In this document: positions 836 through 64,000 of the stretch, in pieces | Position numbering within the stretch: position 1 is the first letter of the stretch | Layout of the letters: each line of letters starts with the position of its first letter | From: an uncultured Candidatus Saccharibacteria bacterium | Lineage (GTDB): Bacteria; Patescibacteriota; Minisyncoccia; Phycocordibacterales; JAACPR01 | Length of the DNA stretch: 64,000 nt | Reading direction: 5' to 3' | NCBI GenBank assembly: GCA_964538855.1 | Contig: CAZIEY010000002.1 | Coordinates: forward strand, 153,007 to 217,006 | Made by a program: the position numbers and the translations under genes | Notes under the pieces: model-generated | Databases searched by the model: none | Told to the model about the DNA's origin: nothing | What the model saw: the letters and a program-made list of their open reading frames with translations, nothing else

Positions 836-946
836 CTACTTCAAAATTTAAAAGTCCTAGGGTCGCATCACGCACGTTCAGCAATGAATGTGCGTTTTGT
901 GTTGATGCTCAACCAGACATTTTAAATTTCGAAGTAGTTTGACTAT
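836..946. terminator. Long near-perfect inverted repeat (21-bp arms aaactacttcaaaatttaaaa / ttttaaatttcgaagtagttt) enclosing two nested sub-hairpins; likely rpsI operon terminator or small structured RNA
   Basis: Arms at ~837-859 and ~922-946 are reverse complements (1 mismatch); inner stems cgcacgttc/gaatgtgcg and gcatca/tgatgc seen directly. Confidence 0.4.
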
Positions 947-3494: not shown

Positions 3495-5387
3495 ATGGCA
3501 AAAATAATTGGTATTGACCTCGGTACTACTAACTCCGCGGTTGCATTCGTAGAAGGTGGCGAACCTCGCATCATTGAAAACGTCGAAGGAAATCGCACGA
3601 CACCTTCAATCGTAGGTATTACTCGAAATAATGAACGACTCGTTGGGCAAATCGCAAAACGACAAGCGGTGACAAATCCAAAAAACACTGTCTACGGTAT
3701 CAAACGATTCATTGGACACGCGTTCGACGAACCAGCTTTGGACAAAGACAAGAAAACCGTTCCATACGAAATCAAAAAGTCTGACACAAACGGTGTGCTC
3801 GTGAAAATGGGTGACAAAGAATATCGTCCAGAAGAAATTTCGGCGATGATTTTGACAAAGTTGAAGAATGACGCAGAAGCAAAGCTCGGTGAAAAAATTA
3901 CCGAAGCAGTTATTACCGTTCCTGCATACTTCAACGACTCACAACGCCAAGCTACAAAAGACGCGGGTAAAATCGCGGGGCTTGATGTAAAACGAATCAT
4001 CAATGAACCGACTGCGGCGGCTCTTGCGTACGGCTTCAACAAAAATAAAGACGAGAAAATCGTAGTGTACGACTTCGGAGGTGGAACATTCGATATTTCG
4101 GTGCTTGAAGTTGCTGACAACGTGATCGAAGTGAAATCGACAGACGGAGACTCACATATGGGTGGACGCGACATCGATCAGAAAATCATGCGATTCATCA
4201 TCGATGAATTCAAAAAGGATACTGGAATCGATGTGTCAAAAGACGCGCTCGCGTTGCAACGAATCGACGAAGCGGCTGAAAAAGCAAAAATGGAATTGTC
4301 GACTTCAATGGAAACAGAAGTTAACATTCCATTCATCGCGACTGGTCAAAATGGTCCGGAACACCTCGTCAAAAAAATAACTCGAGCAAAATTGGAGGAA
4401 CTTTCTGCAGAATTCATTGAACGATCTATCGAAATTACAAAGCGTGCGATGGCGGCTTCTCCTTTCAAAATCAACGAAATTAACGAAGTGATTTTGGTTG
4501 GTGGACAAACTCGTATGCCAAAAATTATCGAAGAAGTGAAAAAACTTTTCGGTAAGGAACCAAACAAGGGCGTAAACCCTGACGAAGTGGTGGCAATCGG
4601 TGCTGCAATTCAAGCCGGAATTTTGCAAGGTGACGTGAAAGACGTGCTCTTGCTCGACGTGATTCCACTTTCTCTTGGAATTGAAACAATGGGAGGTGTC
4701 GCGACAAAATTGATTGAGAAAAACAAAACGATTCCAACAACGGCTTCACAAGTTTTCTCTACCGCAGCCGACAATCAGACGCAAGTCGAAATCAACATTG
4801 TCCAGGGTGAACGCGCAATGGCGGCCGACAACAAATCGCTCGGACGATTCGTGCTCGATGGAATTCCACCAGCTCCACGCGGCGTGCCTCAAGTCGAAGT
4901 AACGTTTGATATCGACGCAAACGGAATTTTGAACGTAAAGGCGACTGACAAAGCTTCTAAAAAAGAACAAACCATTCGTATTGAAGCGAGCTCGTCTCTC
5001 TCAAAAGAAGAAATTGAAAAGATGAAAAAAGACGCCGAAATGCACGAAGCCGACGACAAGAAAAAGAAAGAAGTCATCGACGCGAAAAACATGGCGGAAC
5101 AAATGGCGTACACTGCGGAAAAAGCGCTCAAAGACGCAGGCGACAAAGTGCCAGCTGATATAAAAACTTCTGTTGAAGCGAAAATCAAAGAAGTTCGCGA
5201 AGTCGCGGCAAAAGATTCACTCGACGACATCAAAAAAGTTTCGACTGAACTTTCTACAGAAATGCAGAAAATCGGTGAATTCATGAGCAAGCAAAATGCT
5301 GAAGCTCCAAAAGCTGACGCAAAAGATGCTGGCACAACTGCCGATTCAGGAAACGTTCGCGACGCGGAAGCTGAAGATAAGAAATAA
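3495..5387 (+). CDS. dnaK: Chaperone DnaK (Hsp70)
   Basis: [17 protein letters not shown]..., [19 protein letters not shown] Hsp70 signatures; 630 aa. Confidence 0.95.
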
Positions 5388-5389
5388 TA

Positions 5390-6280
5390 ATGACAAAAGA
5401 CTTCTACAACATATTGGGCGTGACAAAATCTGCGAGCAAAGACGACATTAAAAAAGCGTATCGCAAATTAGCGCATGAACATCACCCGGATAAACCCGGC
5501 GGAAACGAGGCCAAGTTTAAAGAGATAAACGAGGCATATTCTGTGCTATCTGACGACACGAAACGTGGCCAATATGATCAATTCGGACAGACCTTTAACG
5601 GTGCCGGAGGTGGTCATGGTGCGGGTGGTTTCGGAGGCTTCGGTCAAGGTGGATTCGAGGGTTTTGATTTCTCGCAATTCACGAATGGCGCGGGAGGCGG
5701 TTTTGAATTCGACCTGAACGACATTTTGGGCGGTATGTTTGGAGGAGGGCGTCGTCGCCAGCGAAAAGGTGCGGATATTTCTATCGATATTGAAATCGAT
5801 TTCAAGGATTCGATTTTAGGTGTCTCTCGCGAAATAAATTTCGCGCGTAAAACCGGTGGCACAGAACATATCAAAGTAAATGTTCCACCTGGCATCGATA
5901 GTGGAGAAATGATTCGCTACACCGGCCGCGGTGAGCAAATTCCTGATGGTCAGCCGGGCGACTTGTACGTGCGCATTCACGTGAAGCCGCATAAAAGACT
6001 TCGCAAAGAGGGGTATCATTTAGTCACAGAAGAAAAAATCACGCTTTCAGAATCAATTTTGGGAGCGAAAAAAGATATTGAATCTGTTGATGGTGTTATC
6101 ACTGTGAAAATTCCAGAGGGAAGCAAACATGGCGAAGTATTGCGCGTACGTGGACGTGGCGTACCAGTATCGACTCGTGAAGTAGGAGACTTGCTCATCA
6201 AGATTTCCGTCGAATATCCAAAAAAGTTATCAAAGAAAGCAAAAGAAGCGATAGAGATATTGCAAAAAGAGGGGATGTAA
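5390..6280 (+). CDS. dnaJ: DnaJ/CbpA-like J-domain co-chaperone lacking the CxxCxGxG zinc-finger domain
   Basis: J domain with HPD (AHEHHPDK), Gly/Phe-rich linker, C-terminal substrate-binding domains; no Cys repeats; 296 aa. Confidence 0.8.
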
Positions 6281-44196: not shown

Positions 44197-45279
44197 TTAA
44201 ATCTGTCTAAGCGCCGGTCGATACCCAGTCGCATCGCCGTTTTTGTTAAATCCGTACGTACCTAAAACTCCGTCGAAATCTGTCAGAGTGTGAAGGTAAT
44301 TTTGTATCGTCTCCGAATCTATGCTTTTTGTATCGTCAATAGCTCGCTTTAATACATAGACCGAATCATATGTAACAGAAACTGCAAAATCAAAAGTGGG
44401 CTGACCAAATCGTTCCTTGTAAGTTGAAAATATTTTTTCTTTTTTACTAGTATTAGGGATTTCAGGATCTGCCGGATATGTCATACCCTTTGCGAAAGGA
44501 ATATTCCGTATTTCTGGTATGCTGCCCACATAATTCCCGTAGATCGCCCCTTTATATTTTCTTTGTTCAAGTTGATTCAAAATAGCTATTGCACTCCCCG
44601 ATTCGTTTGCATTTATAAATATAGCTTGCGGATTGTGACTCATTATCTTTTGCACCTGTGTCCGCACATCTGTCGAATGTGGCAAAGCATCCTCGCTGTA
44701 CAGAGTGCCCGTATAATGTTTTTTAAAAGCCTCTTTCATTCCTGCAGAATAATCCCCGAGTTCAGTAATAATACCTACGGATGTATATTTTGTATTCATA
44801 TCTTCGGCAATAATCTGCGCCGAGTCTTCATCAGAGTGTGAATTACGAAAAACATATTCACTCATGCCAGATATCTGAGGATTTGTAGACCATACTGCAA
44901 TGAGATTTATTTTGGCACGATCGGCAATCTCTCCTGCTGCCAAAGTTTCTGCCGAGCAAGACGACATAAGGAAATTTACACGATCAATAGAGATAAGTTT
45001 TTGCGCCGCAATCGAAGCTGTTTTCGCATCACATTTTCCGTCTTCGTAAATTACTTCCAGTCGTTTACCCAGAGTATCCCCTGCGGAATTAATTTCTTCA
45101 ATCGCTAATTCCATAGCATGCTTCTCTTCAATTCCCCATGATGCACCGAAACCCGTAAGTGGGGCGATAAAACCAATTTTAATTGATTCATTATTTGTGG
45201 TTTTAGAACTGTTAATACCAACTGCTGCGGCAATAGTAATAATTGCTACAAAAACCCATATTTTGTGGTTTATTTTCAT
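44197..45279 (-). CDS. ABC transporter substrate-binding protein, LivJ/Leu-Ile-Val-binding family (orphan)
   Basis: Signal/TM anchor, type I periplasmic-binding fold length and motifs (IGFIAPLTG...); no adjacent permease/ATPase. Confidence 0.75.
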   Translation of the reverse strand: MKINHKIWVFVAIITIAAAVGINSSKTTNNESIKIGFIAPLTGFGASWGIEEKHAMELAIEEINSAGDTLGKRLEVIYEDGKCDAKTASIAAQKLISIDRVNFLMSSCSAETLAAGEIADRAKINLIAVWSTNPQISGMSEYVFRNSHSDEDSAQIIAEDMNTKYTSVGIITELGDYSAGMKEAFKKHYTGTLYSEDALPHSTDVRTQVQKIMSHNPQAIFINANESGSAIAILNQLEQRKYKGAIYGNYVGSIPEIRNIPFAKGMTYPADPEIPNTSKKEKIFSTYKERFGQPTFDFAVSVTYDSVYVLKRAIDDTKSIDSETIQNYLHTLTDFDGVLGTYGFNKNGDATGYRPALRQI

Positions 45280-50989: not shown

Positions 50990-52417
50990 ATGTCTAATAG
51001 CAACAATACTACTAACAATATTTTACATTTTATAAAAAATATATATTCGATAGAAGACAGTATTTTTGATATTCTAGATAAATTTATTGGATTTATTCTA
51101 ATCATTATGTGGATGTCCATATGTAGCTACTGGACATACACTATTCTACCGAAATTCAATATATATCCCTCTAATATTTTATTACAACTTATCATTCTCA
51201 ATATAGTTTTATCATTTATTTTTTGGAGATTTGTTCTCAGAAAGGTAAACAAATTTAAAGATGGAGAAATAGGTATACTGATTTCACTAGTAAAACCAGA
51301 AAGTGAGGAAAGAATTTTAATCAATAAAGAATTAAGATTAATTAAAAATTCGCTTCAAACCCTAGCAAATCGAGAAAACGTAAGTCACACCATAAAAATA
51401 CGAATCCTTCCGGACAGATTATGTCCTAAAAATAAAGATGCTGCATATAGTTTAAGAGATAAATACAAATCTGATCTTATTATTTGGGGTGATATTGAAC
51501 ATGGCAATATGAATGGTAAGGCTCATACAGCTTTTTCAAATACATGTTTTTCTTATGCTTTACCATTAACTCAAGAAAATACACAAAAATTTACCAATAA
51601 TTTAAGCAGAATTTTAAAAAAGAGTAAGTGGTTAATTAGAGAAAGTGAAAATCTAAATGATCGAAATACGTTAGTGAGAAATCTAGAAAAGTTCTCATCT
51701 TATATAATAGGTTTTGCTTACTGTAGAAAAGATCCCAATATTGCATTATCTTTTTTAAAGAAAAGCTTTTTTGATTTTAAGAAAGAAGCCCAAGATATTG
51801 ATAATGCAGTCGCAATATCAAATCTAAGGACTATTATATTAGATATATTATCGTGGAGAAATAAGCAGCTGGAACTATGGCCATCAAGTAAGATTTTACC
51901 GAAAGAGGTTGAAAAATGTAAACAAATAATTGCGGAATTTGAGAGTGTGGGACTGGACACAGAAGCGAATAACACCAAGGCAGTAATGTACGTTGCTGCA
52001 GGCGAGCTCGGATTGGCAAAAAATGCTCTGGCACAAATATCAAACAAAGTAATAAAAAAGGACGCTAGTATTTCGTTTAATTACGCCTATATTTTTTATT
52101 CAGAGGGTAACATTATTGAAGGAACTAGATTTCTGTTGAGGTCTATTAAAATACTAAAACAAAACTCTTCTAACCTAATTGAACAATCTCCTAACTTGGC
52201 CAGATGGTATCAAGATCAACTTCAAACCTACCCAGAGAAGATATATCTAAACTTCCCCTTGGGAATAATATATTATGATCTGATGGGAGATAAAAAACTA
52301 GCAAAAGATTGCTTAAAAATTGCTCTGGATTATTGTTTAGAAAAAATTGGAGAAGATGGTATATGGATAAAAATAAAATATAATATAGAAAAGAGATTAA
52401 GAAAAACGGGTAGGTAA
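50990..52417 (+). CDS. Hypothetical membrane-anchored protein, very AT-rich, helical-repeat-like C-terminal region
   Basis: 475 aa; two N-terminal TM helices; GC ~28 %. Confidence 0.4.
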   Translation: MSNSNNTTNNILHFIKNIYSIEDSIFDILDKFIGFILIIMWMSICSYWTYTILPKFNIYPSNILLQLIILNIVLSFIFWRFVLRKVNKFKDGEIGILISLVKPESEERILINKELRLIKNSLQTLANRENVSHTIKIRILPDRLCPKNKDAAYSLRDKYKSDLIIWGDIEHGNMNGKAHTAFSNTCFSYALPLTQENTQKFTNNLSRILKKSKWLIRESENLNDRNTLVRNLEKFSSYIIGFAYCRKDPNIALSFLKKSFFDFKKEAQDIDNAVAISNLRTIILDILSWRNKQLELWPSSKILPKEVEKCKQIIAEFESVGLDTEANNTKAVMYVAAGELGLAKNALAQISNKVIKKDASISFNYAYIFYSEGNIIEGTRFLLRSIKILKQNSSNLIEQSPNLARWYQDQLQTYPEKIYLNFPLGIIYYDLMGDKKLAKDCLKIALDYCLEKIGEDGIWIKIKYNIEKRLRKTGR

Positions 52418-52468: not shown

Positions 52469-53587
52469 CTAAATACTCACAAACAATCCATTCTCCACCT
52501 TTCGAATCTGATATTCACGTTGCGCTTGGCAGTCTGTATCAAAACTCTTGGCTTTTCCGGTGATGAGTGGGTAATCAGTAAGGTTCGATATATAGTTTCC
52601 GACTTCTTGAGGAGATTCTCCGACGACTTTTATTGCATCGAGGGCAAGTTTTACACCATCATAATACGCTGCTGTCGGAAGACTTGGATGTGTGCCGAAT
52701 TGTTCGAGGTAAGCCTGCTTGTATGCTTTCACACTCGGTGTATCACTATTGCTTGGTTCAGATTGATAGTTCCAGTCTACAAATACAATTCCATTCGCAA
52801 GCTTCTTGTCCTGGAGTACAGGATTCTGGATAGTATTATAGTCACTGTAAATTGGTTTATTCCAACCAAGATTAGAAATTTGTTGAAGCATAGTTTGGGC
52901 AGTATTTGCAGCATTTACCGTGATCAAGGCTCCAGTTGTACTCATAACTGTCTTTAATTTTGTGATGTTAGTCCTGAAATCTGAAGTTGCCGCGTCGAAT
53001 GGTTCCGAAGCAGTGACAGTTCCACCTAGTGCAACATACACCTTGGTAAATTCATCTGATATTCCTTTACCGAATTCATTATTCGGCATGAGAAGCGCAG
53101 TTGTTTTAATATTTGAATTAATCAATTGCTGAGCAAGCGCAGGGCCGATATCTTTTGCGGTCATAGTTGTACGACATGACAACGTATTATTATCTATGAA
53201 CGCTGGGGTTGTTGCTCCTGAAGAAATAATAAAGTTACCATCAGTGATTGCAACGGGACGCACCGCAGCTGCTACAGGACTGTATTCAACAACAAAGAAT
53301 TTCACACCTCTAGTTTTAAGTGCTTGATATGCATCAAGACCTTTTTTCGCATCGGAAGCGGTATCTTCGATCAGTAGTTCTACTGGCTGACCATTAATAC
53401 CGCCAGCATCATTTATATTCTTTACCGCAAGTTCAGCACTTTGTTTCTGAAATTCACCGTATGCCGCAAGAGGACCAGTGAGCGTGTAAAGAGCTCCAAT
53501 CTTGAGTGGTGTTTCGGAAGTGTTGTTCTTCCATCCCATGACGAAAATGACGATAATAACGACTACTACAAGAAGGTATTTTTTCAT
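52469..53587 (-). CDS. ABC transporter substrate-binding protein, LivJ family (orphan)
   Basis: Third paralogous SBP. Confidence 0.75.
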   Translation of the reverse strand: MKKYLLVVVVIIVIFVMGWKNNTSETPLKIGALYTLTGPLAAYGEFQKQSAELAVKNINDAGGINGQPVELLIEDTASDAKKGLDAYQALKTRGVKFFVVEYSPVAAAVRPVAITDGNFIISSGATTPAFIDNNTLSCRTTMTAKDIGPALAQQLINSNIKTTALLMPNNEFGKGISDEFTKVYVALGGTVTASEPFDAATSDFRTNITKLKTVMSTTGALITVNAANTAQTMLQQISNLGWNKPIYSDYNTIQNPVLQDKKLANGIVFVDWNYQSEPSNSDTPSVKAYKQAYLEQFGTHPSLPTAAYYDGVKLALDAIKVVGESPQEVGNYISNLTDYPLITGKAKSFDTDCQAQREYQIRKVENGLFVSI

Positions 53588-55013: not shown

Positions 55014-56114
55014 TTATTCTACCATTACATAGGAACCGCCCCGAATCTGGCGAAGTTCTGTATCTTGAAAAGATTGCTGACCGTACTCATTAAATTTTAT
55101 TACGTTTGAATAACCAACATAATTATCGACAGAATTTAGATAATTTTTGATATCTTCTCCATTTTTAGCTCCAGATTTTATTGCATCAATAACAAGCATA
55201 GTCATATCATAAGATGTTGCAGCACTAATTGCTGATGGTAAAGTTCCGAAACGCTTCAAATATTTATCGTTGAATTCTGATGTTTTTACGTACACCTTGT
55301 CGGCTGGATAATATATTCCATCTCCAATGCTTGCTCCTGCCTGATTAGACAACAATGATTGAATGGAGCCAACTGGCATGAAGATTGGTAAGTTAATTCC
55401 GAGTTCTTTTGTTTGTCTCGCAAAAACCTCTGGCTTACTGCCACCTGATATAACAGCGTAGATAACATCAGCGTCGCTATTTTTTAATTTAAGCAATTCT
55501 GTTCGATAATCAGAAATTCCCTCGTTTGTCTTTGATTCAAAAACAATACTAAGGTCTTTATAATTATCTTTTACTTCCTGCTTGACGACCGCCGCCAAAT
55601 TATCTGACCAAGAGCTCACGTTCGAATAGAGAGCAACTTTTTTATGTCCAGATTTAACCATGTAATCCAAGACCTCTTTAACTTGAAATCTTTCGCTGGC
55701 TGTTGCTGAAAAATAATATGGTAATTTAGACCACTCGAATTCGCTTGCCATCCAAGGAGAAATGACTGGAACATTCGCGGTATTTCCAATAGGTGCGGCA
55801 ACTTCACCCCACTCTGCCCATTCTGGACCAATAATTACGTCCACACCGTCTACGTTGATCAATTTTCTAGTCGCAGTAACTGTTTTAGAAATATCTGACT
55901 GAGTATCTTCCAAAACATAATCAACATCTAGACCGGAATCCTCTATCGCCATGATAAAACCATTACGAGAAGATTCTCCAGCAAATGACACAAATCCAGT
56001 TTGACCAAACAATCCACCAATTTTTATCGTGTTATTTGTTTCAGTGGGCTTGTTCAAAGATACTGCCAAAATGATTATCGCAATTACTACTACTGGCCAA
56101 ATTATTTTTTTCAT
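55014..56114 (-). CDS. ABC transporter substrate-binding protein, LivJ family (orphan)
   Basis: Fourth paralogous SBP. Confidence 0.75.
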   Translation of the reverse strand: MKKIIWPVVVIAIIILAVSLNKPTETNNTIKIGGLFGQTGFVSFAGESSRNGFIMAIEDSGLDVDYVLEDTQSDISKTVTATRKLINVDGVDVIIGPEWAEWGEVAAPIGNTANVPVISPWMASEFEWSKLPYYFSATASERFQVKEVLDYMVKSGHKKVALYSNVSSWSDNLAAVVKQEVKDNYKDLSIVFESKTNEGISDYRTELLKLKNSDADVIYAVISGGSKPEVFARQTKELGINLPIFMPVGSIQSLLSNQAGASIGDGIYYPADKVYVKTSEFNDKYLKRFGTLPSAISAATSYDMTMLVIDAIKSGAKNGEDIKNYLNSVDNYVGYSNVIKFNEYGQQSFQDTELRQIRGGSYVMVE

Positions 56115-56199: not shown

Positions 56200-56394
56200 T
56201 TATTTAGGCTCTTTCTGACCTTCTGGTCGACCCTTCTCGAGAGTAGCTTTCTCTGCATACAAATGAGGATTTTGTTTCCTATCTTGATCCAGTAACCATT
56301 GAAATACTGCGACCACTCTGTCACTTTCTTCTTTAGTCCAGTTTCTAAGATTTTTCTTGTTTTCTTGATTCATAAAAAGTGACAAAAGTGACAT
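56200..56394 (-). CDS. Small hypothetical protein (64 aa) at distal end of LexA-led operon
   Basis: ORF begins with tandem gtcactttt repeat; WTKEESDRVVAVFQWLLDQ. Confidence 0.3.
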   Translation of the reverse strand: MSLLSLFMNQENKKNLRNWTKEESDRVVAVFQWLLDQDRKQNPHLYAEKATLEKGRPEGQKEPK

Positions 56395-56416
56395 TCGTAC
56401 ACTTTTTCCATATTAG

Positions 56417-57112
56417 CTATAAGTCTAAACCATATTTTTTAATCGCCTCTCGAAAACTCCTTGCCACCAAAATCAAATCGGGGTGACACTTGTTAATCAT
56501 ACGGTCACTACCACAAAAACATTTTCTCCCGTCAAATTGACCGTTCATTACGGATTCAACCAAATTCCATTGTTTACTTACTTTTAGTCGCTTAAGACAA
56601 GCAAGAACTTGTGGTTCTTTACTATCACTATTCTTGAACGATTGCAGAATGCCGACTACATCGTGGTCATACGCAAGCCAAGGCCATTTTTTGTACTCAT
56701 CAAAATAAGATTGGGCATATAAAAATGGTATCACTAAACGTTCAAAGTATTCGAGAAAACTATAGCCTCGTGTAAAAATATCATCCTCTTCAGAAGGACC
56801 CGCTAAACACGCTCGTCCATCTCCAGTGTCAAAAAAATGACGTTTCGGTATCCACTTGTTTTTATCTGTATAAACCCAGCATTTAGGCATTCTACGACTC
56901 TCACTATTTTTAGTGATTTTTATCTTGTATTCCCCACTAATAACCAGACCCTCGTAATCGATGTTTGGGTCCATGAAAGCAGTAAACATATTTGTGACTT
57001 TATCGTAGACAGAAGTAAACCGGACAGTACCTTCAATAGTGTCCTCACCCTCATTTATTTTTAAATCAGGTAAAGTTTCAGCGAGCCATTGAATTTCGAT
57101 TTTAGTTATCAT
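56417..57112 (-). CDS. Unrecognised Cys-rich protein (~230 aa) encoded immediately downstream of the candidate CD-NTase; possible novel CBASS accessory/effector
   Basis: Start at MITKIEIQ; Cys pairs RACLAG and KCFCGSDRMINKCHPD; overlaps the NTase gene stop by ~10 nt. Confidence 0.45.
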   Translation of the reverse strand: MITKIEIQWLAETLPDLKINEGEDTIEGTVRFTSVYDKVTNMFTAFMDPNIDYEGLVISGEYKIKITKNSESRRMPKCWVYTDKNKWIPKRHFFDTGDGRACLAGPSEEDDIFTRGYSFLEYFERLVIPFLYAQSYFDEYKKWPWLAYDHDVVGILQSFKNSDSKEPQVLACLKRLKVSKQWNLVESVMNGQFDGRKCFCGSDRMINKCHPDLILVARSFREAIKKYGLDL

Positions 57113-58019
57113 TATTATAAGACCATTGGCGTGGTGGTGTATATGAACCACCGATTGTATACCCGGCAGTTACCGCACTCGCACTCTTACTATTTCCTGA
57201 ATTGTTCTGTTTAATATTACTTTCAAATAGTACTTTCCAAGATTCTATCTCATTTGAATCTTGTATAGTTTTAAGAACCATTTTCGCTGCTTGAGAAATG
57301 TTTCTTTTTTCAGAATCATCAACAAGTTGAGAAACGATATTATTCGTGTTGGCAGGGTCTATAATTCGCGATGACGCAAAGTTATCACGAAAAGCTTCAA
57401 GCACCTTAATGAATCCCTTCTCGAGATCGCCCTTATTCTGATAACCCGAAAGAGTTTGCACAACAAACAATTCGAGAATAAAGGTCTTTATCTTGATGTT
57501 ATTTCGATGTGCCCAAAGTTTAATCAGACGAATAATCGACACACATCCACTATCGACAATATGATCGATATGTATTTTAAGATTGGTCTGCATTCTCTCC
57601 TTGTCTCCTTGTGCGACATGAAGAAATACATCCTTAGTGTCTGTGATAAAGCGTCCCGGTACAACATCAATATGGAAATCACCTGGTGCATCAGCACCCT
57701 TTAGATCGAGAATTCTTTCTGCCGAAGCCTTGTGCGTAAGGAGGTACTTCTTAGAAAGTCGAGTTGCTACGTCTTCACGGATTTCTTTCAATGACCGTTC
57801 GTCAGAACTTGGAAAGTAACAGACGATATCAAGATCGTATCGATCACAAATCATTGTGCCTTTCTCTCTAGATCCTGCATATTTTATAACAGGATCATCA
57901 CCGAATTCTTCACGGAGAAAAGCGGTTACTTCGTTCTTATGGGACTGCAAAGCTTCCTCCTGTTTTTCAGACAGATCTTGTGAAGCGAGCAGGTTTTCTA
58001 GGTATTTGCTTGGTGTCAT
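57102..58019 (-). CDS. Pol-beta-superfamily nucleotidyltransferase of SMODS/CD-NTase type (candidate cyclic-oligonucleotide synthase)
   Basis: YAGSREKGTMICDRYDLDIVCYF = G-S-x11-DhDh; third acidic residue in HIDVVPG; 305 aa; translationally coupled to HNH-fusion gene. Confidence 0.55.
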   Translation of the reverse strand: MTPSKYLENLLASQDLSEKQEEALQSHKNEVTAFLREEFGDDPVIKYAGSREKGTMICDRYDLDIVCYFPSSDERSLKEIREDVATRLSKKYLLTHKASAERILDLKGADAPGDFHIDVVPGRFITDTKDVFLHVAQGDKERMQTNLKIHIDHIVDSGCVSIIRLIKLWAHRNNIKIKTFILELFVVQTLSGYQNKGDLEKGFIKVLEAFRDNFASSRIIDPANTNNIVSQLVDDSEKRNISQAAKMVLKTIQDSNEIESWKVLFESNIKQNNSGNSKSASAVTAGYTIGGSYTPPRQWSYNNDN

Positions 58020-58023
58020 AAAT

Positions 58024-59199
58024 TTAATTAATAGTTAATGCTAACTCGTACCCTTCTCTGATTCGATCGTATACATGCAACTGCGGACTAACATCTTTTA
58101 GTAGTTCTCGTCCGCAAACTATCGCAACTGGGGCAGGTATTGCAGCGAAAAGATGAAGTTCACTCTTTGTTCCATGCTCCACTTCGATTGAACGCAAGAT
58201 ACTTTGGTACTTTCTTTGGAATGTATGAAGACTCTCTCTTGCTGTTATGAGCGACCGATTCGGATCTTTGCCTAATGGCGTAATTTCGTAGATAGTAAAC
58301 TCATCGTTTATATGTTCAGGTAGTTGATCCAAGACAATCTTGCTACTCAACGAGAGAAGTAAGGCGATCTTTTTCTGATTACTACCTTTCTGAATGCATT
58401 GCGATTCGAACTGTACAGATTCTTCTTTGCGCCATCGCCATCCCGCAGGATTATCTCTGTGATGTTGGTAAAAATCTGCAGCAATCTTATCCCCCAACGC
58501 ATTACCTAGATGAATGAGTATGGGTATCCTTGCAAGTGAAAATACTGATATGTGTCCAATATGTCCACTTTCTATCGCAGGAACTACCTGACGATTCACA
58601 ATTTCGTTCACTTTAGCTATAGCCATCTTCCAAAAATCAGTGTTTACTTCTTGCGGTAGAGACTGAAGATCTATCTCAATTGCCCGCTCGTCCCCCAAGT
58701 AGCGAGGATATCTACCAGTATCAAGCACTGCGGTTCGTATCTCTTCGTTTGAGATTGAAACACTATCCCCTCGAATATTACCCATGATCCGAAGCACTAC
58801 CGTCTCATGCTCAACACCAAGACTTGTAAGGTACTTAATACGAGCTTCGTGCTCGTTCTTGTATCTCATTAGAAGCTCTTTTGGATATTCATCAACTTTA
58901 TCAATCACAGCATGACATTTTGTGCAAAGAAGCATAAGGTTTGAAGCTTTATTTCGTTCTGTGATCGGGAGAGGATCGTCGCCTCGTGGACCTCCTTTTG
59001 ATCGAGCGACTATGTGTGCGATATTCGAGAGTTTTACCTCTTGAGTCGTAAGAGCATCTTCCAATAAATAGGTATTACACCCATGGAATTCACACCTACC
59101 TCCTGCATGCGTCCACAACTCAAATACAACAGGATCAGTACCACTGATACTCGGTGCTTTAGATAAATTTCGACTTTTCTTTGCACGCTTTCTGGACAT
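58024..59199 (-). CDS. HNH endonuclease fused to ~250-aa C-terminal domain (Cap5-like HNH-SAVED effector, putative)
   Basis: CEFHGC...AHIVARSKGGPRGDDP...NLMLLCTKCH = HNH bba-Me motif; size (391 aa) and domain order match Cap5; SAVED assignment is inference. Confidence 0.5.
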   Translation of the reverse strand: MSRKRAKKSRNLSKAPSISGTDPVVFELWTHAGGRCEFHGCNTYLLEDALTTQEVKLSNIAHIVARSKGGPRGDDPLPITERNKASNLMLLCTKCHAVIDKVDEYPKELLMRYKNEHEARIKYLTSLGVEHETVVLRIMGNIRGDSVSISNEEIRTAVLDTGRYPRYLGDERAIEIDLQSLPQEVNTDFWKMAIAKVNEIVNRQVVPAIESGHIGHISVFSLARIPILIHLGNALGDKIAADFYQHHRDNPAGWRWRKEESVQFESQCIQKGSNQKKIALLLSLSSKIVLDQLPEHINDEFTIYEITPLGKDPNRSLITARESLHTFQRKYQSILRSIEVEHGTKSELHLFAAIPAPVAIVCGRELLKDVSPQLHVYDRIREGYELALTIN

Positions 59200-59201
59200 A
59201 A

Positions 59202-59411
59202 TTATTTTTTCTTCCTGTTATATGGGGATTGATTTGTTGGCCGTAAACTAATACCGAGTTCCGACGCCTTATTTCGAACTCCACCCACAGGTCTACCAAG
59301 TTTAAAGCCAATCACACGAGTCGGTGTATTATCTTTCGATAATGATTTGAGTTGTTTCACCTCGTTAGGTGTCCACTCTTTTCCAGCATTCCTAATGTAT
59401 TTTTGTACCAT
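59202..59411 (-). CDS. Small GcrA-N-terminal-like DNA-binding domain protein
   Basis: WTPNEVKQLKSLSKDNTPTRVIGFKLGRPVGGVRNKASELGI parallels GcrA WTDERVELLKKLW.EGLSASQIAAELGGVSRNAVIGKVHRLGL. Confidence 0.3.
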   Translation of the reverse strand: MVQKYIRNAGKEWTPNEVKQLKSLSKDNTPTRVIGFKLGRPVGGVRNKASELGISLRPTNQSPYNRKKK

Positions 59412-59418
59412 AATTTTA

Positions 59419-60066
59419 TTAATTAACGTTTTTAATAATTCCTACAACCTTACCACTCAACCTAAAATCGTCACCTTCATGAATAAATATTGGAAGATAT
59501 TTATGAGTTGAGTCAGCCTCCAATACAATGATTTTATTTTTAGGTTCAAACTTATACCGCTTAATGGTCGCCAATCCATCAATAACAGCCACGACGATGT
59601 CTCCATTTTTGTAGTTTTTATACTCACTGTCGACTAGTATAAAATCCCCGCTTTCAATTACTTTACCAGGTTCAACTTCTGCAAGATTCATACTGTCACC
59701 GTCAGCAATCAACGCATATAGATCTTTCTTGTTTCGTGGTAAAATAGATGTAGAAACTTTAAGATATTGTTCAACATTAGGCTCTGCAAAGATTGAAGCA
59801 GGACCACAATTTGCAGACCCTACTACAGGGAGAGAGTAAATGGGGCTTGTTGATGCTTTTGCATATCCCCTTTTAACCAATCTGATGATTTTCTCATCCA
59901 AATTCATTTGGATTAAGCCGTCTTTTTCAAGTTGCTGTAAATGATATTTGGCTGTCTGCGGCTTATCTTTTGCACCGATCATTTCAGCAATTTTTCTAAG
60001 ACTATACGATCCGAAATCATCGTGCGTTGCTATAAGGTCTAAAATTTGTTGTTGTATCCTGTGCAT
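59419..60066 (-). CDS. lexA: LexA repressor (wHTH + S24 autopeptidase)
   Basis: N-terminal LexA DNA-binding fold (QQILDLIATHDD...KYHLQQLEKDGLI), cleavage-site region, ADGDSM Ser motif, catalytic Lys in ATIKRY. Confidence 0.8.
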   Translation of the reverse strand: MHRIQQQILDLIATHDDFGSYSLRKIAEMIGAKDKPQTAKYHLQQLEKDGLIQMNLDEKIIRLVKRGYAKASTSPIYSLPVVGSANCGPASIFAEPNVEQYLKVSTSILPRNKKDLYALIADGDSMNLAEVEPGKVIESGDFILVDSEYKNYKNGDIVVAVIDGLATIKRYKFEPKNKIIVLEADSTHKYLPIFIHEGDDFRLSGKVVGIIKNVN

Positions 60067-60145
60067 ATTTAAAGTATAGCATATTTCAGAGTAAAATGCA
60101 ACTAATAATTTGACATTTTACACCCGCTTTTGATATTATTACATC
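60067..60145. promoter_or_regulatory. Divergent promoter region: minus-strand ttgcat-N17-tatact ending 6 nt before lexA ATG (leaderless?), plus-strand ttgaca-N18-tattat, and inverted repeat gtaaaatg-N17-cattttac
   Basis: Read directly. Confidence 0.35.
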
Positions 60146-60505
60146 ATGGAGATTCAGATCCAAAATTCAAAAGCATCCTCTCTCAATTTTCCAAAAAGAA
60201 AGTCGAGAAATAAATGCGAAGAGAAATGGAATGACTCCGAAAATCAGAAAATATTTCTAGACGAACAAGAGTTCTATATAGACGAGTCTGGTATTGATGT
60301 AATTGCAAAATTTAAACTACCACCCTATCTCAAAGAAAAGATAGTGCGAGGAGAAGTTAATATCAACGGAACATTTTTCCCAGAAGAAACAAATCGTGAA
60401 CTAGAAGATTTGCTCGATACGCAAGAAAAGCTTTTGCTAAATGGTAAAACAGCACAACAAGTAGATTTCGACAAATTACTGGAAACAGGACTCTTGAGAT
60501 TATAG
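60146..60505 (+). CDS. Hypothetical acidic protein (119 aa)
   Basis: ORF only. Confidence 0.4.
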   Translation: MEIQIQNSKASSLNFPKRKSRNKCEEKWNDSENQKIFLDEQEFYIDESGIDVIAKFKLPPYLKEKIVRGEVNINGTFFPEETNRELEDLLDTQEKLLLNGKTAQQVDFDKLLETGLLRL

Positions 60506-60655
60506 AAATAATGGAATTAGTGCCGCTTAAATAAAATTAACCCGCCTGATTTCATACAGAAAGCCTAAGTACATCATTTTTGGTGTATTAAGTCTTCGTA
60601 TGAAGTTCGGCTTTTTGTTTTATCTGTTTTTATTATTTAACTAATATAAAACATA

Positions 60656-61939
60656 ATGAAAAAACTAGTTTGGAGCACAGTTCAAAAGAAAGTAGATGAC
60701 CTTATTCCCCAAAAGATAAACCCTCGTATTATCAATGACAAACAAATGTCAGATCTTAAGAGAAGTTTACAAAAGTATAACTTGGTGGAAATACCTGCAG
60801 TTGATCTCAACGGAAAAATTCTTGCGGGACACCAGCGCATCAAAGCACTGAAGATATTAGGTCGTGGTGATGAATTAATAGATGTAAGGGTCCCCAACCG
60901 CAAACTTACTGAAAAAGAATCGAATGAATACCTGATAGCATCCAACAAACTCGGCGGTGACTGGGATTTTGAAGCACTCAAATCTTTCGATCTTGATGCG
61001 CTTGAATTTGCAGGATTTGATGAGGTTGAAATCGGCAAATTCATGGATGATGACAAGGAAGTGATAGAAGAAGATTTTGATGTAGAAAAAGAATTGAAGA
61101 AGATAAAGAAACCAATAACAAAGCTTGGTGATATTATCACGCTTGGGAAACATCGAATCTTGTGCGGAGATTCTACACGCAAAGAAAATCTTACAAAACT
61201 ATTCGGGAAAGAAAAAGCATCAATGATATATTCAGATCCAGTGTATAACATAGATATCAATTACGACGGAGGTATTAGTGGCAACAAAGACTACGGCGGA
61301 AATGTAAACGACACAAGAACTTTTGATGAATACAAAAAATTCTTGAAAGATAGTATGGAAGCAGGACTTGCGGTATCCAATAAAGATATTCACACCTTCT
61401 ATTGGTGTGATCAAGTATATATAGGCGTGGTGCAGGATCTATATAGATCCCTCGGTATTGTAAACAAGCGGGTATGCTTATGGATAAAGAACAACCAAAA
61501 TCCAGTCCCTAGTGTTGCATTCAACAAAGTTTACGAACCCTCAGTATATGGTGTCCGAGGAAAACCGTATCTAGCAAATATCAACAATCTTAATGAAGTG
61601 CTCAATAAGGAATTAAGTACTGGTAACAACTTGTTTGATGAGATTAATGATATCTGGATGACGAAAAGACTATCAGCACAGGATTACACGCATGCAACTT
61701 CAAAACCCTACCAACTACACGAGAAAGCAATAAAACGCTGCACTAAACCAAACGACCTCATCCTCGATAGTTTTCTCGGATCGGGCAGTACTCTCATTGC
61801 AGCCGAAACTCTAGGTCGAAGAGTATATGGGTGTGAATTAGAACCTCAATTCTGCGATCTCATTATACGAAGATATGAAAAGCTAACTGGTAAAAAAGCC
61901 GCAATCAAACACCATGAAGAAAAACAAAGTTCAGAATAA
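60656..61939 (+). CDS. ParB-like nuclease domain fused to beta-class N6A/N4C DNA methyltransferase
   Basis: N-terminal ParB/Srx fold with AGHQRIKAL; motif IV SDPVYN (DPPY-type) precedes motif I DSFLGSGST; typical phage/plasmid orphan MTase layout. Confidence 0.75.
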   Translation: MKKLVWSTVQKKVDDLIPQKINPRIINDKQMSDLKRSLQKYNLVEIPAVDLNGKILAGHQRIKALKILGRGDELIDVRVPNRKLTEKESNEYLIASNKLGGDWDFEALKSFDLDALEFAGFDEVEIGKFMDDDKEVIEEDFDVEKELKKIKKPITKLGDIITLGKHRILCGDSTRKENLTKLFGKEKASMIYSDPVYNIDINYDGGISGNKDYGGNVNDTRTFDEYKKFLKDSMEAGLAVSNKDIHTFYWCDQVYIGVVQDLYRSLGIVNKRVCLWIKNNQNPVPSVAFNKVYEPSVYGVRGKPYLANINNLNEVLNKELSTGNNLFDEINDIWMTKRLSAQDYTHATSKPYQLHEKAIKRCTKPNDLILDSFLGSGSTLIAAETLGRRVYGCELEPQFCDLIIRRYEKLTGKKAAIKHHEEKQSSE

Positions 61940-62345
61940 ATTCCTTGATGAATTGGAAAAAACACCGATTATCCAGTATGCATGTGAAAAATGCGGAATA
62001 TCAAGAAATACATACTACCGATGGATTAAAGAAGATAGTTTTTTCAGGTTACAAGTAGACGACCGCATAAGTCTTGGTGTTGATAGAATAAATGATTTCG
62101 CCGAAAATAATATCCTTTCTGGTATTAAACGAGGTGATTTCAGATCAACTATATATTGGCTTAGTCATAGGAATAGAAACTATGTAAAGCCATTGAAAGT
62201 TATTATGCACCCAGACGACTCGGATACCCAGAGAATTCGATTGGAATTTGCAAAACGGAGAGCAAAAGAAATGCAGGAGCGGTGGTTTAGACATAAACCA
62301 AATCAAGAGATCAGTGATCCAAATCACCCACTTGACCCCAAATGA
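61914..62345 (+). CDS. HTH protein, phage terminase-small-subunit-like (putative)
   Basis: ACEKCGISRNTYYRWIKED helix-turn-helix; overlaps MTase gene end. Confidence 0.3.
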   Translation: MKKNKVQNKFLDELEKTPIIQYACEKCGISRNTYYRWIKEDSFFRLQVDDRISLGVDRINDFAENNILSGIKRGDFRSTIYWLSHRNRNYVKPLKVIMHPDDSDTQRIRLEFAKRRAKEMQERWFRHKPNQEISDPNHPLDPK

Positions 62346-62381
62346 TGCGCTATATCCTATTCAGACAATATAGATGTAGTT

Positions 62382-62546
62382 TTAGTCTTTTGCGACTGCC
62401 CATACAAGTGCCACGATCCATCCAATGACCGTCCAACCAGCTGTGATATTTAACACTAGTATTGCTTCTGAATTCTTCTTGTGACGAGAATAACCAATAA
62501 TTGACGGCAACATGTACCCAATCAGCATCCCGAAAAATAATTCCAT
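62382..62546 (-). CDS. Superinfection-immunity-like mini membrane protein (54 aa)
   Basis: MELFFGMLIGYMLPSIIGYSRHKKNSEAILVLNITAGWTVIGWIVALVWAVAKD; LN..AGWT.IGW..ALVWA pattern of prophage Imm/superinfection-immunity family. Confidence 0.4.
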   Translation of the reverse strand: MELFFGMLIGYMLPSIIGYSRHKKNSEAILVLNITAGWTVIGWIVALVWAVAKD

Positions 62547-62650
62547 AATTTTATTTAGAGACTTAATATTTATAATGTAAGTAATTTATGATTATCTTAA
62601 TCTCAAGATAGGTAAAATAAAAACCATCTTTAATGCGAGATGAGTCGTAC

Positions 62651-63220
62651 TTACCTTTGTTCAACAGTACCGTCTGTATAAACCAGAGTCTCGACTTCCC
62701 ATTCGTAATTCATCTTTGCTAAATCAATATTTCTGAGTTCTATATCACTGTCGATAAATTGATTGTATTCAAGATATACTGAATACAACTTAACTTCTGA
62801 AATTTTTAATCCATCATCATAAGAAATACCAATTGACTTGATATGATCACCGAATAAATCTTGGATACGAATAGTTCCCTTAACCCCGTCCAATTCCTTA
62901 CCAGAATTATTAGTAAGTTCAAGCGACATACTAATTGAATCTTGATAGTCTCCGTCCGTAAAACCTTTTTTTAAAATCTTAAGATCTACTTTTTTTGATA
63001 AGTCAGTAGTATTACTTACCTCAGGTGCACTCCGTTCTTCTGAATTATTAGTTTGCACATCAGACTGCGTATTAATCACATCGGAAAACGTATCTCGAAT
63101 GGCTTTCTGCAATTGATATGTTTTATATTCCATACCCGCCCAAAACACCAACGCCAATAGTATACACACCGGAATAATCCACTCACGTTTACTTTGTAAA
63201 AATATTTTTAATTTTTCCAT
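62651..63220 (-). CDS. Hypothetical membrane-anchored protein (189 aa)
   Basis: N-terminal TM; preceded by attenuator-like leader. Confidence 0.45.
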   Translation of the reverse strand: MEKLKIFLQSKREWIIPVCILLALVFWAGMEYKTYQLQKAIRDTFSDVINTQSDVQTNNSEERSAPEVSNTTDLSKKVDLKILKKGFTDGDYQDSISMSLELTNNSGKELDGVKGTIRIQDLFGDHIKSIGISYDDGLKISEVKLYSVYLEYNQFIDSDIELRNIDLAKMNYEWEVETLVYTDGTVEQR

Positions 63221-63225
63221 GAAAT

Positions 63226-63364
63226 GTTCGTCGCGATTTATTTTATAAATTCCTAAAGATGAGACACAAAAATCCCATCACTAGGAAGACCCGAAGGTCT
63301 CTACACCAGTTTCCCGATGTAACGCGACGAACGCCCTAATGATGGGGTTTTTAAGTTCGTCGCG
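63226..63364 (-). promoter_or_regulatory. Attenuator/riboswitch-like leader with mutually exclusive helices: X1/X2 (cgcgacgaac, two copies) vs Y (gttcgtcgcg), and a 17-bp terminator helix enclosing a UUCG-capped hairpin
   Basis: Plus-strand: gttcgtcgcg 63226-35 and 63355-64; inverse cgcgacgaac 63323-32; terminator arms 63268-85 / 63334-52 with T-runs both sides; gaccUUCGggtc inner hairpin (minus-strand sense). Confidence 0.4.
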
Positions 63365-63553
63365 ATTTTGACCATATCCTTTGAAATTTCAAAGGGGTTA
63401 GGTCCAATTAATATGTAATTGTCAGGATTAAATGATACAACAAAAGCATCGTTTAATCCAGTTTAGATTATATCGCTGAACACTCTCTTTGCTAAGACTT
63501 GGTGACGACCACACTACGCTTTTCCGTGTTTGCATAGATATATTAAAAAATGT

Positions 63554-63582
63554 ATAGCCCCTGAAGTTCATCCAGGGGCTAT
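63554..63582 (-). terminator. Terminator atagcccctg-N9-caggggctat overlapping stop of histidine-phosphatase gene
   Basis: Perfect 10-bp stem, T-run on minus strand. Confidence 0.5.
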
Positions 63583-63999
63583 GAGGGATTGATCACTGAC
63601 GTCTTCCTTACCCACTCAAATGCAGGAGTCAGGAAAAACATTTCTTCAAGATGAAACCCTCCGCTTTCACCCTGAAGATAACGAACTATTTGGCAATTTC
63701 TAATATAATTATCTCCACCGATAAAATCTATGTAATTGCTCGGTGGAGTTTTATGGTGTATCACTCTAACGGCTTGTATAGGTCCGCCGTGCGTAACAAC
63801 CAAAATCTTCTTACCTGCATAAACCCTGTGGGCGTTACGCAGAAATAAATTCATTCTCTCCCTAACAGATTGCATAGACTCGCCATTCAACGGCTTCCAA
63901 TCAATACCGTCTTCGCTCTTAGCGATGCCCGCATCTTCAAATGCTCTTTCCCTTTCTGGATATGGAAGTAGCTCATAACCACCCCAATCCCGTTCACGT
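63579..63999 (-). CDS. Histidine phosphatase (phosphoglycerate-mutase-like) family protein, N-terminus beyond window
   Basis: LVVTHGGPIQAV (HGG) C-terminal motif; reading frame stays open upstream to the window edge (...REAFEDAGIAKSEDGIDWKPLNGES...). Confidence 0.6.
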   Translation of the reverse strand, partial: RERDWGGYELLPYPERERAFEDAGIAKSEDGIDWKPLNGESMQSVRERMNLFLRNAHRVYAGKKILVVTHGGPIQAVRVIHHKTPPSNYIDFIGGDNYIRNCQIVRYLQGESGGFHLEEMFFLTPAFEWVRKTSVINPS

Positions 64000-64000
64000 A

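Follow-up and report, generated by a model that had tools for sequence, protein, structure and literature searches.

Staphylococcus aureus pathogenicity islands and phage-inducible chromosomal islands (SaPI/PICI satellites), like P4/P2-type hotspots, are small, carry an integrase, a divergent master repressor and a small terminase of their own, lack structural genes and bear variable anti-phage cargo. In the immunity region of phage lambda, cI, rexA and rexB lie in this order behind PRM, with PR divergent from it. The present analysis concerns positions 56.2-63.5 kb of a 64,000-nucleotide stretch of contig CAZIEY010000002.1 from an uncultured Candidatus Saccharibacteria bacterium (the whole stretch is hereafter called the window), where phage-like genes face a cyclic-oligonucleotide-based anti-phage signalling system (CBASS) across a divergent promoter. 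We put at roughly 60% the probability that this region is a copy from a phage-derived family of integrative elements that recurs in Patescibacteria (candidate phyla radiation, CPR) and is equipped with a genetic switch, a cargo slot and an inferred satellite-like mechanism.

The CPR family shares with SaPI/PICI and P4/P2-type elements its small size, an integrase, a divergent repressor, its own gene resembling a small terminase subunit (TerS), the lack of structural genes and a variable cargo. It departs from SaPI/PICI in that its integrase is a large serine recombinase and not a tyrosine enzyme, in that many copies carry a large terminase subunit (TerL), in having a ParB-like::methyltransferase (MTase) fusion in its core, and in that no primase/replicase or capsid-remodelling genes were recognised; the window copy, moreover, is without an integrase. 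A limited literature search found no phage satellite from Patescibacteria and no such element family. With the lambda region the window shares a repressor of the self-cleaving S24 type, a divergent promoter and defence genes downstream in the repressor's operon, whereas its cargo, a CBASS, is exchangeable from one copy to another, its first rightward gene gave no recognisable Cro-like helix-turn-helix (HTH), and its operator is putative. Phage MTases of PHROG 498, such as phi1207.3 Orf32, have the same domain architecture and the same position upstream of the terminase genes, but the CPR clade is more uniform (73-89% identity across hosts) and its motif IV reads SDPVY, not DPPY. The region further includes a full-length match (77.7 bits) to the LOOT RNA (RF03000; Weinberg et al. 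2017, PMC5737381), for which the literature consulted gives no more than an entry as an orphan RNA from metagenomes. In contrast to LOOT as known so far, it serves here as 5' leader to a variety of membrane-protein genes, in many cases with a serine recombinase in divergent orientation beside it, and has two covarying features outside the Rfam model.

The features of the region are listed below; open reading frame is abbreviated ORF, amino acids aa and transmembrane TM, and L numbers denote related loci.

56200-56394, minus strand: 64-aa ORF at the far end of the cargo; counterpart in L019 (blastn 74% over 144 bp; tblastn 55% over 54 aa, E 1.6e-14)
56417-57151, minus strand: CBASS accessory E2-like protein (cargo); PADLOC E2 1.5e-23; 67% homologue at the same position in L155
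57102-58019, minus strand: CBASS CD-NTase (cargo); Pfam SMODS 3.6e-6; PADLOC cyclase PDLC00803 3.8e-70
58024-59199, minus strand: HNH-SAVED endonuclease effector (cargo); Pfam SAVED 9e-36 and HNH_2; PADLOC effector 5e-118
59202-59411, minus strand: 69-aa backbone protein (cluster C6); 76-80% identical in L007-L009 and L018; phrog_323, regulator tail, 1.8e-9
59419-60066, minus strand: LexA/CI-like repressor, winged HTH and S24 autopeptidase with GDSM...K motifs; Peptidase_S24 7.2e-20; phrog_4 repressor 6.7e-23
60067-60145, no strand: conserved divergent promoter/putative operator region, the 79-bp gap between the repressor and 119-aa genes
60146-60505, plus strand: 119-aa protein, first gene of the rightward operon; homologues at the same position in L019 (56%) and L024 (44%)
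60656-61939, plus strand: ParB-like N-terminal domain::beta-class DNA methyltransferase, 427 aa, the backbone marker; matches in Pfam, PHROG, PADLOC and PDB
61914-62345, plus strand: TerS-like HTH protein, 143 aa; TerS PHROGs 1.9e-7 to 4e-4; overlaps the MTase stop by 26 nt
62382-62546, minus strand: Imm_superinfect mini-protein (Imm), 54 aa with two TM segments, second gene of the LOOT-led operon; PF14373 8.8e-19; phrog_1039 1.7e-18
62651-63220, minus strand: membrane-anchored protein of 189 aa (TM segment at the N-terminus), the nearest gene downstream of LOOT; a 32% homologue likewise follows LOOT in L201
63226-63239, minus strand: 14-nt sequence AAATCGCGACGAAC that repeats the 5' strand of the LOOT central stem exactly; its end is 5 nt ahead of the ATG of the 189-aa gene
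63265-63285, minus strand: 3' extension CCUAGUGAUGGGAUUUUU predicted from duplex energies to pair with the apical part of the LOOT central hairpin, outside the Rfam model
63286-63404, minus strand: LOOT RNA (RF03000); 77.7 bits against a gathering score of 46.4, E 6.4e-13, model positions 1-121 (full length)
63467-63495, minus strand: promoter-like site TTAGCA-17-TATAAT about 60 nt upstream of LOOT; a consensus match only, in a region 94% conserved in L151

The backbone and its cargo slot

Related loci were collected from genomes (15 loci), assemblies (8 loci) and IMG/VR (77 loci), and backbone clusters and synteny were derived by all-vs-all blastp and tblastn over 21 genome/assembly loci and the 77 IMG/VR loci. 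A scan of IMG/VR with single-protein patterns gave no relatives; an alignment-based scan detected them. It can be deciphered from this comparison that the family keeps one gene order: minus-strand cargo that varies, a protein of 69-71 aa, a repressor that is either LexA-like or of the XRE type, the divergent promoter, a small ORF, the ParB-MTase, the HTH gene, in some copies TerL, and a serine recombinase. The conserved backbone has the layout of a genetic switch, with the repressor and the 69-aa protein leftward, the small ORF, MTase and HTH genes rightward, and the promoter/putative operator between them.

The recombinases of the relatives (427-480 aa) combine Resolvase, Recombinase and Zn_ribbon_recom domains and are CcrB/XisF-like. 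One was present in all 17 non-redundant close relatives with enough downstream flank (16 plus L247), where it lies 0.1-2.2 kb after the HTH or TerL gene. TerL, found in one subtype, is a protein of 488 aa that matches phrog_38 at 3.2e-84 and is named terminase large subunit by NCBIfam; in the TerL-less subtype, a LOOT-led gene for a small membrane protein occupies the interval between the HTH gene and the recombinase. The window departs from the rule for the recombinase: none lies in it, and no TerL either; its copy has lost both or never had them nearby. In L001 (12811-14128) the recombinase is split into ORFs of 120 aa and 324 aa, and in L155 (oriented coordinates 3543-4184) the LexA-like gene is interrupted by a stop; these broken backbone genes suggest ongoing copy decay or sequencing errors.

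The slot behind the repressor differs from copy to copy. L155 carries CBASS in the window's layout (cyclase 74% and E2 67% identical), L015 a CBASS with an effector of four TM segments (4TM), L004 a Pycsar-like system, L001 Gabija, L020 a 1612-aa STAND protein and L019 PDC-S06, and further relatives have helicases or RusA together with unknown proteins in this place. In the window itself, cyclase, HNH-SAVED effector and E2 are contiguous in one operon, as in a CBASS with an E2-only accessory. With CBASS, Imm_superinfect and the MTase side by side in the window, and a variable slot among the relatives, the region qualifies as a defence island. The 64-aa ORF, which has no Pfam match, is the only left-side sequence common with L019 (window 56257-56396 versus L019 5993-6132, 74% DNA identity); its counterpart sits within the cargo there, and it may mark a conserved edge of the slot.

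Beyond the backbone, the genes following the recombinase in the relatives are methyltransferases, helicases, a kinase or type I restriction-modification (R-M)-like genes. PHROG scans detected no structural genes after the recombinase in L033 and L066, none among the scanned left-flank genes of L009, and no capsid, portal, tail or lysis families among the island proteins of the window; on the left side of L001, L019 and L020, genes of host-type Pfam families begin to appear at a distance of some 6-10 kb, and the rest of the flanks gave such families or no match. From the host-type genes near the left flanks and the lack of structural matches, a compact family without recognisable virion genes can be deduced. 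A sequence-only reading of this DNA had proposed a prophage or defence-island context for 60146-62560. The mobile, phage-derived origin and the defence island are supported, in view of the shared backbone, the recombinase and the varied defence cargo, while the prophage is not, as no structural genes were found.

The repressor is the first gene of a tight leftward operon that continues into CBASS, its genes (repressor, 69-aa, HNH-SAVED, CD-NTase, E2) overlapping or lying 2-7 nt apart. Against the LexA equivalog model TIGR00498 it scores 89.7 bits (1.9e-25), under the cutoff of 110.95. Its homologues are 57-75% identical in 8 related loci, an XRE HTH takes its place in L001, L019 and L020, and the 69-aa protein always directly follows the LexA-like gene. 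By analogy with known repressors, the window CBASS operon would probably be under SOS-type control by this element-borne repressor.

The LexA-like gene and the rightward operon share the conserved 79-bp region in a divergent arrangement. A rightward promoter, TTGACA (60110), an 18-nt spacer and TATTAT (60139), agrees with the consensus at 11/12 positions, has in addition a TG, and ends 6 nt before the ATG of the 119-aa gene, the mRNA of which is probably leaderless. An inverted repeat (GTAAAATG/CATTTTAC) overlaps the -35, a leftward extended -10 adjoins the repressor ATG, and the 16-nt sequence ATTTGACATTTTACAC is invariant in 8 loci (alignment A6).

Phage-type genes of the rightward operon

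Four ORFs make up the region 60146-62560. The sequence-only reading had named three of them, the MTase, the HTH gene and the 54-aa ORF, and each was recovered where it had been placed; the fourth, the 119-aa ORF, it had left unmentioned. No match to the 119-aa protein was obtained in Pfam, PHROG, PADLOC or NCBIfam. The slot upstream of the MTase is filled by a small ORF of the 119-aa, 132-aa or 294-aa type, the 119-aa gene being swapped for unrelated ORFs (C4, C9) or missing in relatives.

Residues 189-403 of the MTase match Pfam N6_N4_Mtase (PF01555) at 6.3e-30 and 105.2 bits, against a cutoff of 26.7, and the full length matches the phage family phrog_498 at 1.9e-87. Motif IV (SDPVY, ~194) precedes motif I (DSFLGSGST, ~371), and both are kept in 14 homologues, so that the MTase with this motif order, as predicted in the sequence-only reading, is borne out. 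In motif IV (residues ~193-198) a valine stands in place of the second proline; the same position is L in L005 and P in L008. The best solved relatives are the adenine MTases CcrM, DpnA and MboIIA, with CcrM nearest, and on sequence grounds the enzyme is probably of the N6-adenine type; PADLOC labels it a type II MTase (PDLC03229, 5e-59). For the N-terminal portion, nine ParB-like/nuclease PHROGs match residues 8-144 (best phrog_620, 1.3e-24), and PDB sequence searches with the MTase and with its N-terminus gave no ParB domain. More than 120 clusters of homologues at 73-89% identity all come from CPR/Patescibacteria assemblies or metagenomes, and characterised phage MTases are only 31-34% identical over 95-99% of the length. 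Among 50,697 phage records, none was matched by 60146-62560 in blastn. Phage ancestry is supported by phi1207.3 and vB_Gva_AB1, in which some 2 kb separate a homologue of the ParB-MTase from terS/terL further downstream; the gene after TerL is portal in vB_Gva_AB1 and the recombinase in the CPR elements.

The likeness of the HTH protein to a terminase small subunit, also suggested earlier, holds up in a weak form: the best TerS PHROG match is 1.9e-7, and homologues stand directly upstream of TerL in at least 14 loci (L007-L012, L022-24, L033, L042, L052, L066, L071). Pfam HTH matches are all sub-threshold, a PDB sequence search with the HTH profile returned nothing meaningful, and several TerS entries of BFVD match the structural model at 1e-3 to 5e-2, which is weak. 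The position before TerL is better evidence for TerS than the profile matches or the low-confidence fold.

The LOOT-led unit

A second minus-strand unit converges on the HTH gene and comprises the promoter-like site (63495-63467), the LOOT RNA, the 189-aa gene and Imm; past it come a terminator and a gene for a histidine phosphatase, the latter incomplete at the window end. The resemblance of the 54-aa protein to superinfection-immunity proteins, noticed from its sequence at the outset, is confirmed by PF14373 (67.6 bits, cutoff 27.9). A homologue (54%) directly follows LOOT in L161, and the Imm gene is outside the conserved backbone.

LOOT was found in every TerL-less relative except L020 and L029, and the loci that carry it are the window, L001, L004-6, L019, L025, L054, L100, L102, L123, L247 and 64 metagenome loci (L125-L204). 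Its strand is always opposite to the MTase operon, and it is always 5' of a small, usually membrane-anchored ORF. Mostly it has the recombinase gene on one side, in divergent orientation, and on the other the gene for a small membrane protein of which it is the leader; L019 is an exception, its LOOT following the recombinase gene at a distance of 55 nt. A pattern scan that started from LOOT itself yielded 3 true copies in IMG/VR, each near an MTase-HTH-TerL or recombinase module, and the 64 copies in metagenomes. A serine recombinase is encoded in the fetched DNA of 25 of these 64, and about 12 of the 25 recombinases are close homologues that lie 90-190 bp upstream of LOOT and divergent from it; the HTH gene accompanies 13 of the 64 copies and TerL 8. 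In 63 loci, the ORFs that follow LOOT sort into 44 sequence clusters, and the products of 48/63 carry a TM segment at the N-terminus.

Covariation marks two features outside the Rfam model. The helix formed by the apical part of the central hairpin with the 20 nt after LOOT, which includes an A-run/U-run, covaries strongly: the duplex energy is -25.8 kcal/mol within a locus versus -14.2 kcal/mol across loci, and 57/69 loci beat 95% of controls (p = 4e-36). This extra 3' helix could be a pseudoknot or a terminator alternative. The second feature is a repeat of the central-stem 5' strand placed 1-10 nt before the downstream start codon, with sequences differing by locus; in the window it is the copy of LOOT positions 37-50. 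Such a repeat of at least 10 nt is present in 21/67 LOOT loci versus 2.5% of cross-locus controls, and its duplex energies differ from those of controls (p = 2e-7). As the repeat duplicates the 5' strand of the stem, the 3' strand can pair either within LOOT or with the translation-initiation region, and such predicted alternative pairing is the signature of a cis-acting switch.

In L151, positions 5119-5893 are 94% identical to window 63226-64000 and have the same histidine phosphatase/LOOT junction. A different membrane protein (336 aa) follows LOOT there, and homology stops exactly at the repeat near the start codon, which suggests cassette-like replacement. Five further ORFs upstream in L151 look by eye like ordinary host genes, their translations recalling an ATPase of the ABC type, a sugar epimerase and perhaps a glycosyltransferase. 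A DNA-level role of LOOT as an attachment (att)/attC-like site was rejected as its primary reading, the strand being constant relative to the downstream ORF; GNRA-type loops and the own promoter-like site also speak against it, as do the G·U pairs seen on the LOOT strand by hand inspection of the 3' helices in the window and L004.

Mobility, alternatives and a possible mechanism

The loci of the family carry the host labels Saccharibacteria, Woesebacteria, Falkowbacteria and Parcubacteria, and element proteins are 65-89% identical across Saccharibacteria, Microgenomates and Parcubacteria. The host M20 peptidase that adjoins the island drops to 45-50% identity within about 25 database matches, element proteins thus being much better conserved from host to host than this housekeeping gene. 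On ERZ19028761 scaffold_9, which carries the HTH gene, LOOT and a recombinase, the MTase is 77% identical and M20 only 47%, about 100 kb apart, and this disparity within one genome indicates that the element moves horizontally. The closest relative (L099, M20 97%) has no island at the syntenic site, synteny ending at window position 55026, and in a relative with M20 at 85% the element is on the opposite side of M20. The right flank could not be placed in the empty-site comparison, the histidine phosphatase being missing from the 21-kb relative loci. According to the sequence-only reading, syntenic presence of these genes in distant relatives, free of mobile-element hallmarks, would have counted against it; they were found at different chromosomal sites and always with mobile hallmarks. 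Some record titles name other hosts ('uncultured Gammaproteobacteria' for L010 and L016-L018, 'Nanoarchaeia' for L013), which probably reflects mis-binning of a CPR mobile element, or else a wider host range.

The window copy itself seems to have come to rest. The earlier statement that the window has no integrase agrees with tblastn searches with serine recombinase and TerL queries, which gave nothing (best E 0.24; tyrosine integrases were not systematically searched), and the equally noted lack of a tRNA site extends to the full 64 kb, in which there is no tRNA. Att sites were not identifiable in the window. As L151, with the same junction, has no recombinase within 5 kb, the window copy is most likely recombinase-less and by now a fixed defence island.

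Decay of an ordinary temperate prophage is an unlikely but sensible alternative, in which MTase-TerS would be the early/late junction and TerL, portal, heads, tails and integrase have been deleted. The order ParB-MTase, terS, terL is standard in real phages, where TerL is followed by portal, the window copy has neither TerL nor integrase, and IMG/VR holds viral contigs of 20-66 kb with MTase relatives at 41-47%. Against this, a compact, portal-less layout of TerL followed by recombinase recurs in many independent genomes with the MTase at 65-89% identity, which random decay would not yield, and what borders the core in relatives is defence or host genes and no structural ones. Vertical inheritance of chromosomal genes, that is, a CcrM-type orphan MTase, an HTH regulator and a host LexA with CBASS merely adjacent, would fit the very strong conservation of the MTase, its nearest solved relative CcrM, the 1.9e-25 match of the LexA-like protein to TIGR00498 and the recombinase-free window. 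It becomes highly improbable when the MTase at 77% stands in a genome with M20 at 47%, at a different locus, when the island is missing from the syntenic site of the closest relative, when a recombinase is adjacent in 17/17 non-redundant relatives and TerL in many, and when the lexA model scores under its cutoff and an XRE HTH replaces the repressor in three loci. Less probable still is a self-contained R-M or defence system, with the MTase for modification, the HTH protein as controller and the 119-aa protein or the ParB-like domain as nuclease. ParB-like domains can be nucleases, PADLOC assigns a type II MTase, and the neighbourhood is rich in defence genes; yet no restriction endonuclease family matches the 119-aa protein, its gene is replaced (C4, C9) or missing in relatives, and the HTH protein matches TerS profiles and is homologous to proteins directly before TerL.

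Several observations also weigh against the integrative, satellite-like element that we prefer. No replication module (primase/replicase) was recognised among the scanned window proteins and backbone clusters, the family element size of about 10-15 kb is approximate, and Pfam ParBc does not match the N-terminal 158 aa of the MTase even at E<=1. The TerS assignment draws on gene position and on weak profile and fold matches: the AlphaFold2 model of the HTH protein (13-sequence alignment) has a predicted local distance difference test score of 65, and its top PDB match, Sf6 TerS, is weak at E 1.8. The structural proteins of CPR phages could be too divergent for PHROGs. In L142 and L188 the recombinase is 4.5-9 kb from LOOT, so that one beyond the window edge is possible, and with no recombinase, TerL or att site in the window the mobility of this copy is unproven. 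The satellite-like mechanism is an analogy with lambda cI-rexAB and SaPI/PICI.

On the reading of an integrative element with a switch and a slot, the following course can be envisaged. In the resting state the repressor would silence the rightward promoter and drive its own operon, and through this the defence cargo would be expressed, much as rexAB is behind lambda cI. Self-cleavage of the repressor, of the RecA type, would follow on DNA damage or infection by a phage and turn the rightward genes on. The MTase would then methylate the element DNA, probably as m6A, against restriction, and the TerS-like protein could, by analogy, mark this DNA for packaging by a terminase, namely the own TerL in full copies and that of a helper phage in TerL-less copies. 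The serine recombinase would excise and integrate the element, and with no capsid genes the element would depend on a helper phage in a satellite-like manner; the window copy may be mobilisable only in trans. The LOOT leader would control translation or termination for the 189-aa and Imm membrane proteins, which plausibly act in superinfection exclusion.

A more far-reaching proposal can be advanced only tentatively, and we lean against it as a whole: that these are the first satellite-like mobile defence elements of CPR bacteria, with a serine recombinase, a protective MTase and a TerS of their own, which TerL may or may not accompany, transferred between distant ultra-small hosts in helper-phage capsids, and that LOOT is a built-in riboregulator that by alternative pairing hides or exposes the start codon of an exchangeable membrane-protein (exclusion) cassette. 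Within the satellite reading, a LOOT cassette beside a recombinase formally recalls the integron platform.

The flanks of the island in the window are substrate-binding proteins, the M20 peptidase and the histidine phosphatase. Three paralogous periplasmic substrate-binding proteins (Peripla_BP_6) are encoded on the minus strand at 44197-45279, 52469-53587 and 55014-56114; the last, which adjoins the island, is past the synteny break at 55026 and without an orthologue in L099. At 50990-52417 (plus strand) lies a 475-aa ORF of 29% G+C without a Pfam match, in a segment that is missing in L099 and flanked by sequence 87-90% identical to it, and this constitutes a second variable spot. An 88-bp stretch (window 842-929 versus L099 1080-1167, 87.5% identity) is about 9 kb from the M20 gene in L099 and 53 kb from it in the window, indicative of a rearrangement between close relatives.

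To our knowledge, almost nothing is known of how CPR bacteria, with genomes below 1 Mb, acquire and exchange anti-phage systems. An element with a fixed switch and a plug-in slot would explain the spread of CBASS, Gabija, Pycsar-like and further systems among Saccharibacteria, Microgenomates and Parcubacteria. Its backbone provides a marker gene set for finding further cargo, and LOOT, an orphan since 2017, gains a concrete genomic role and a testable mechanism.

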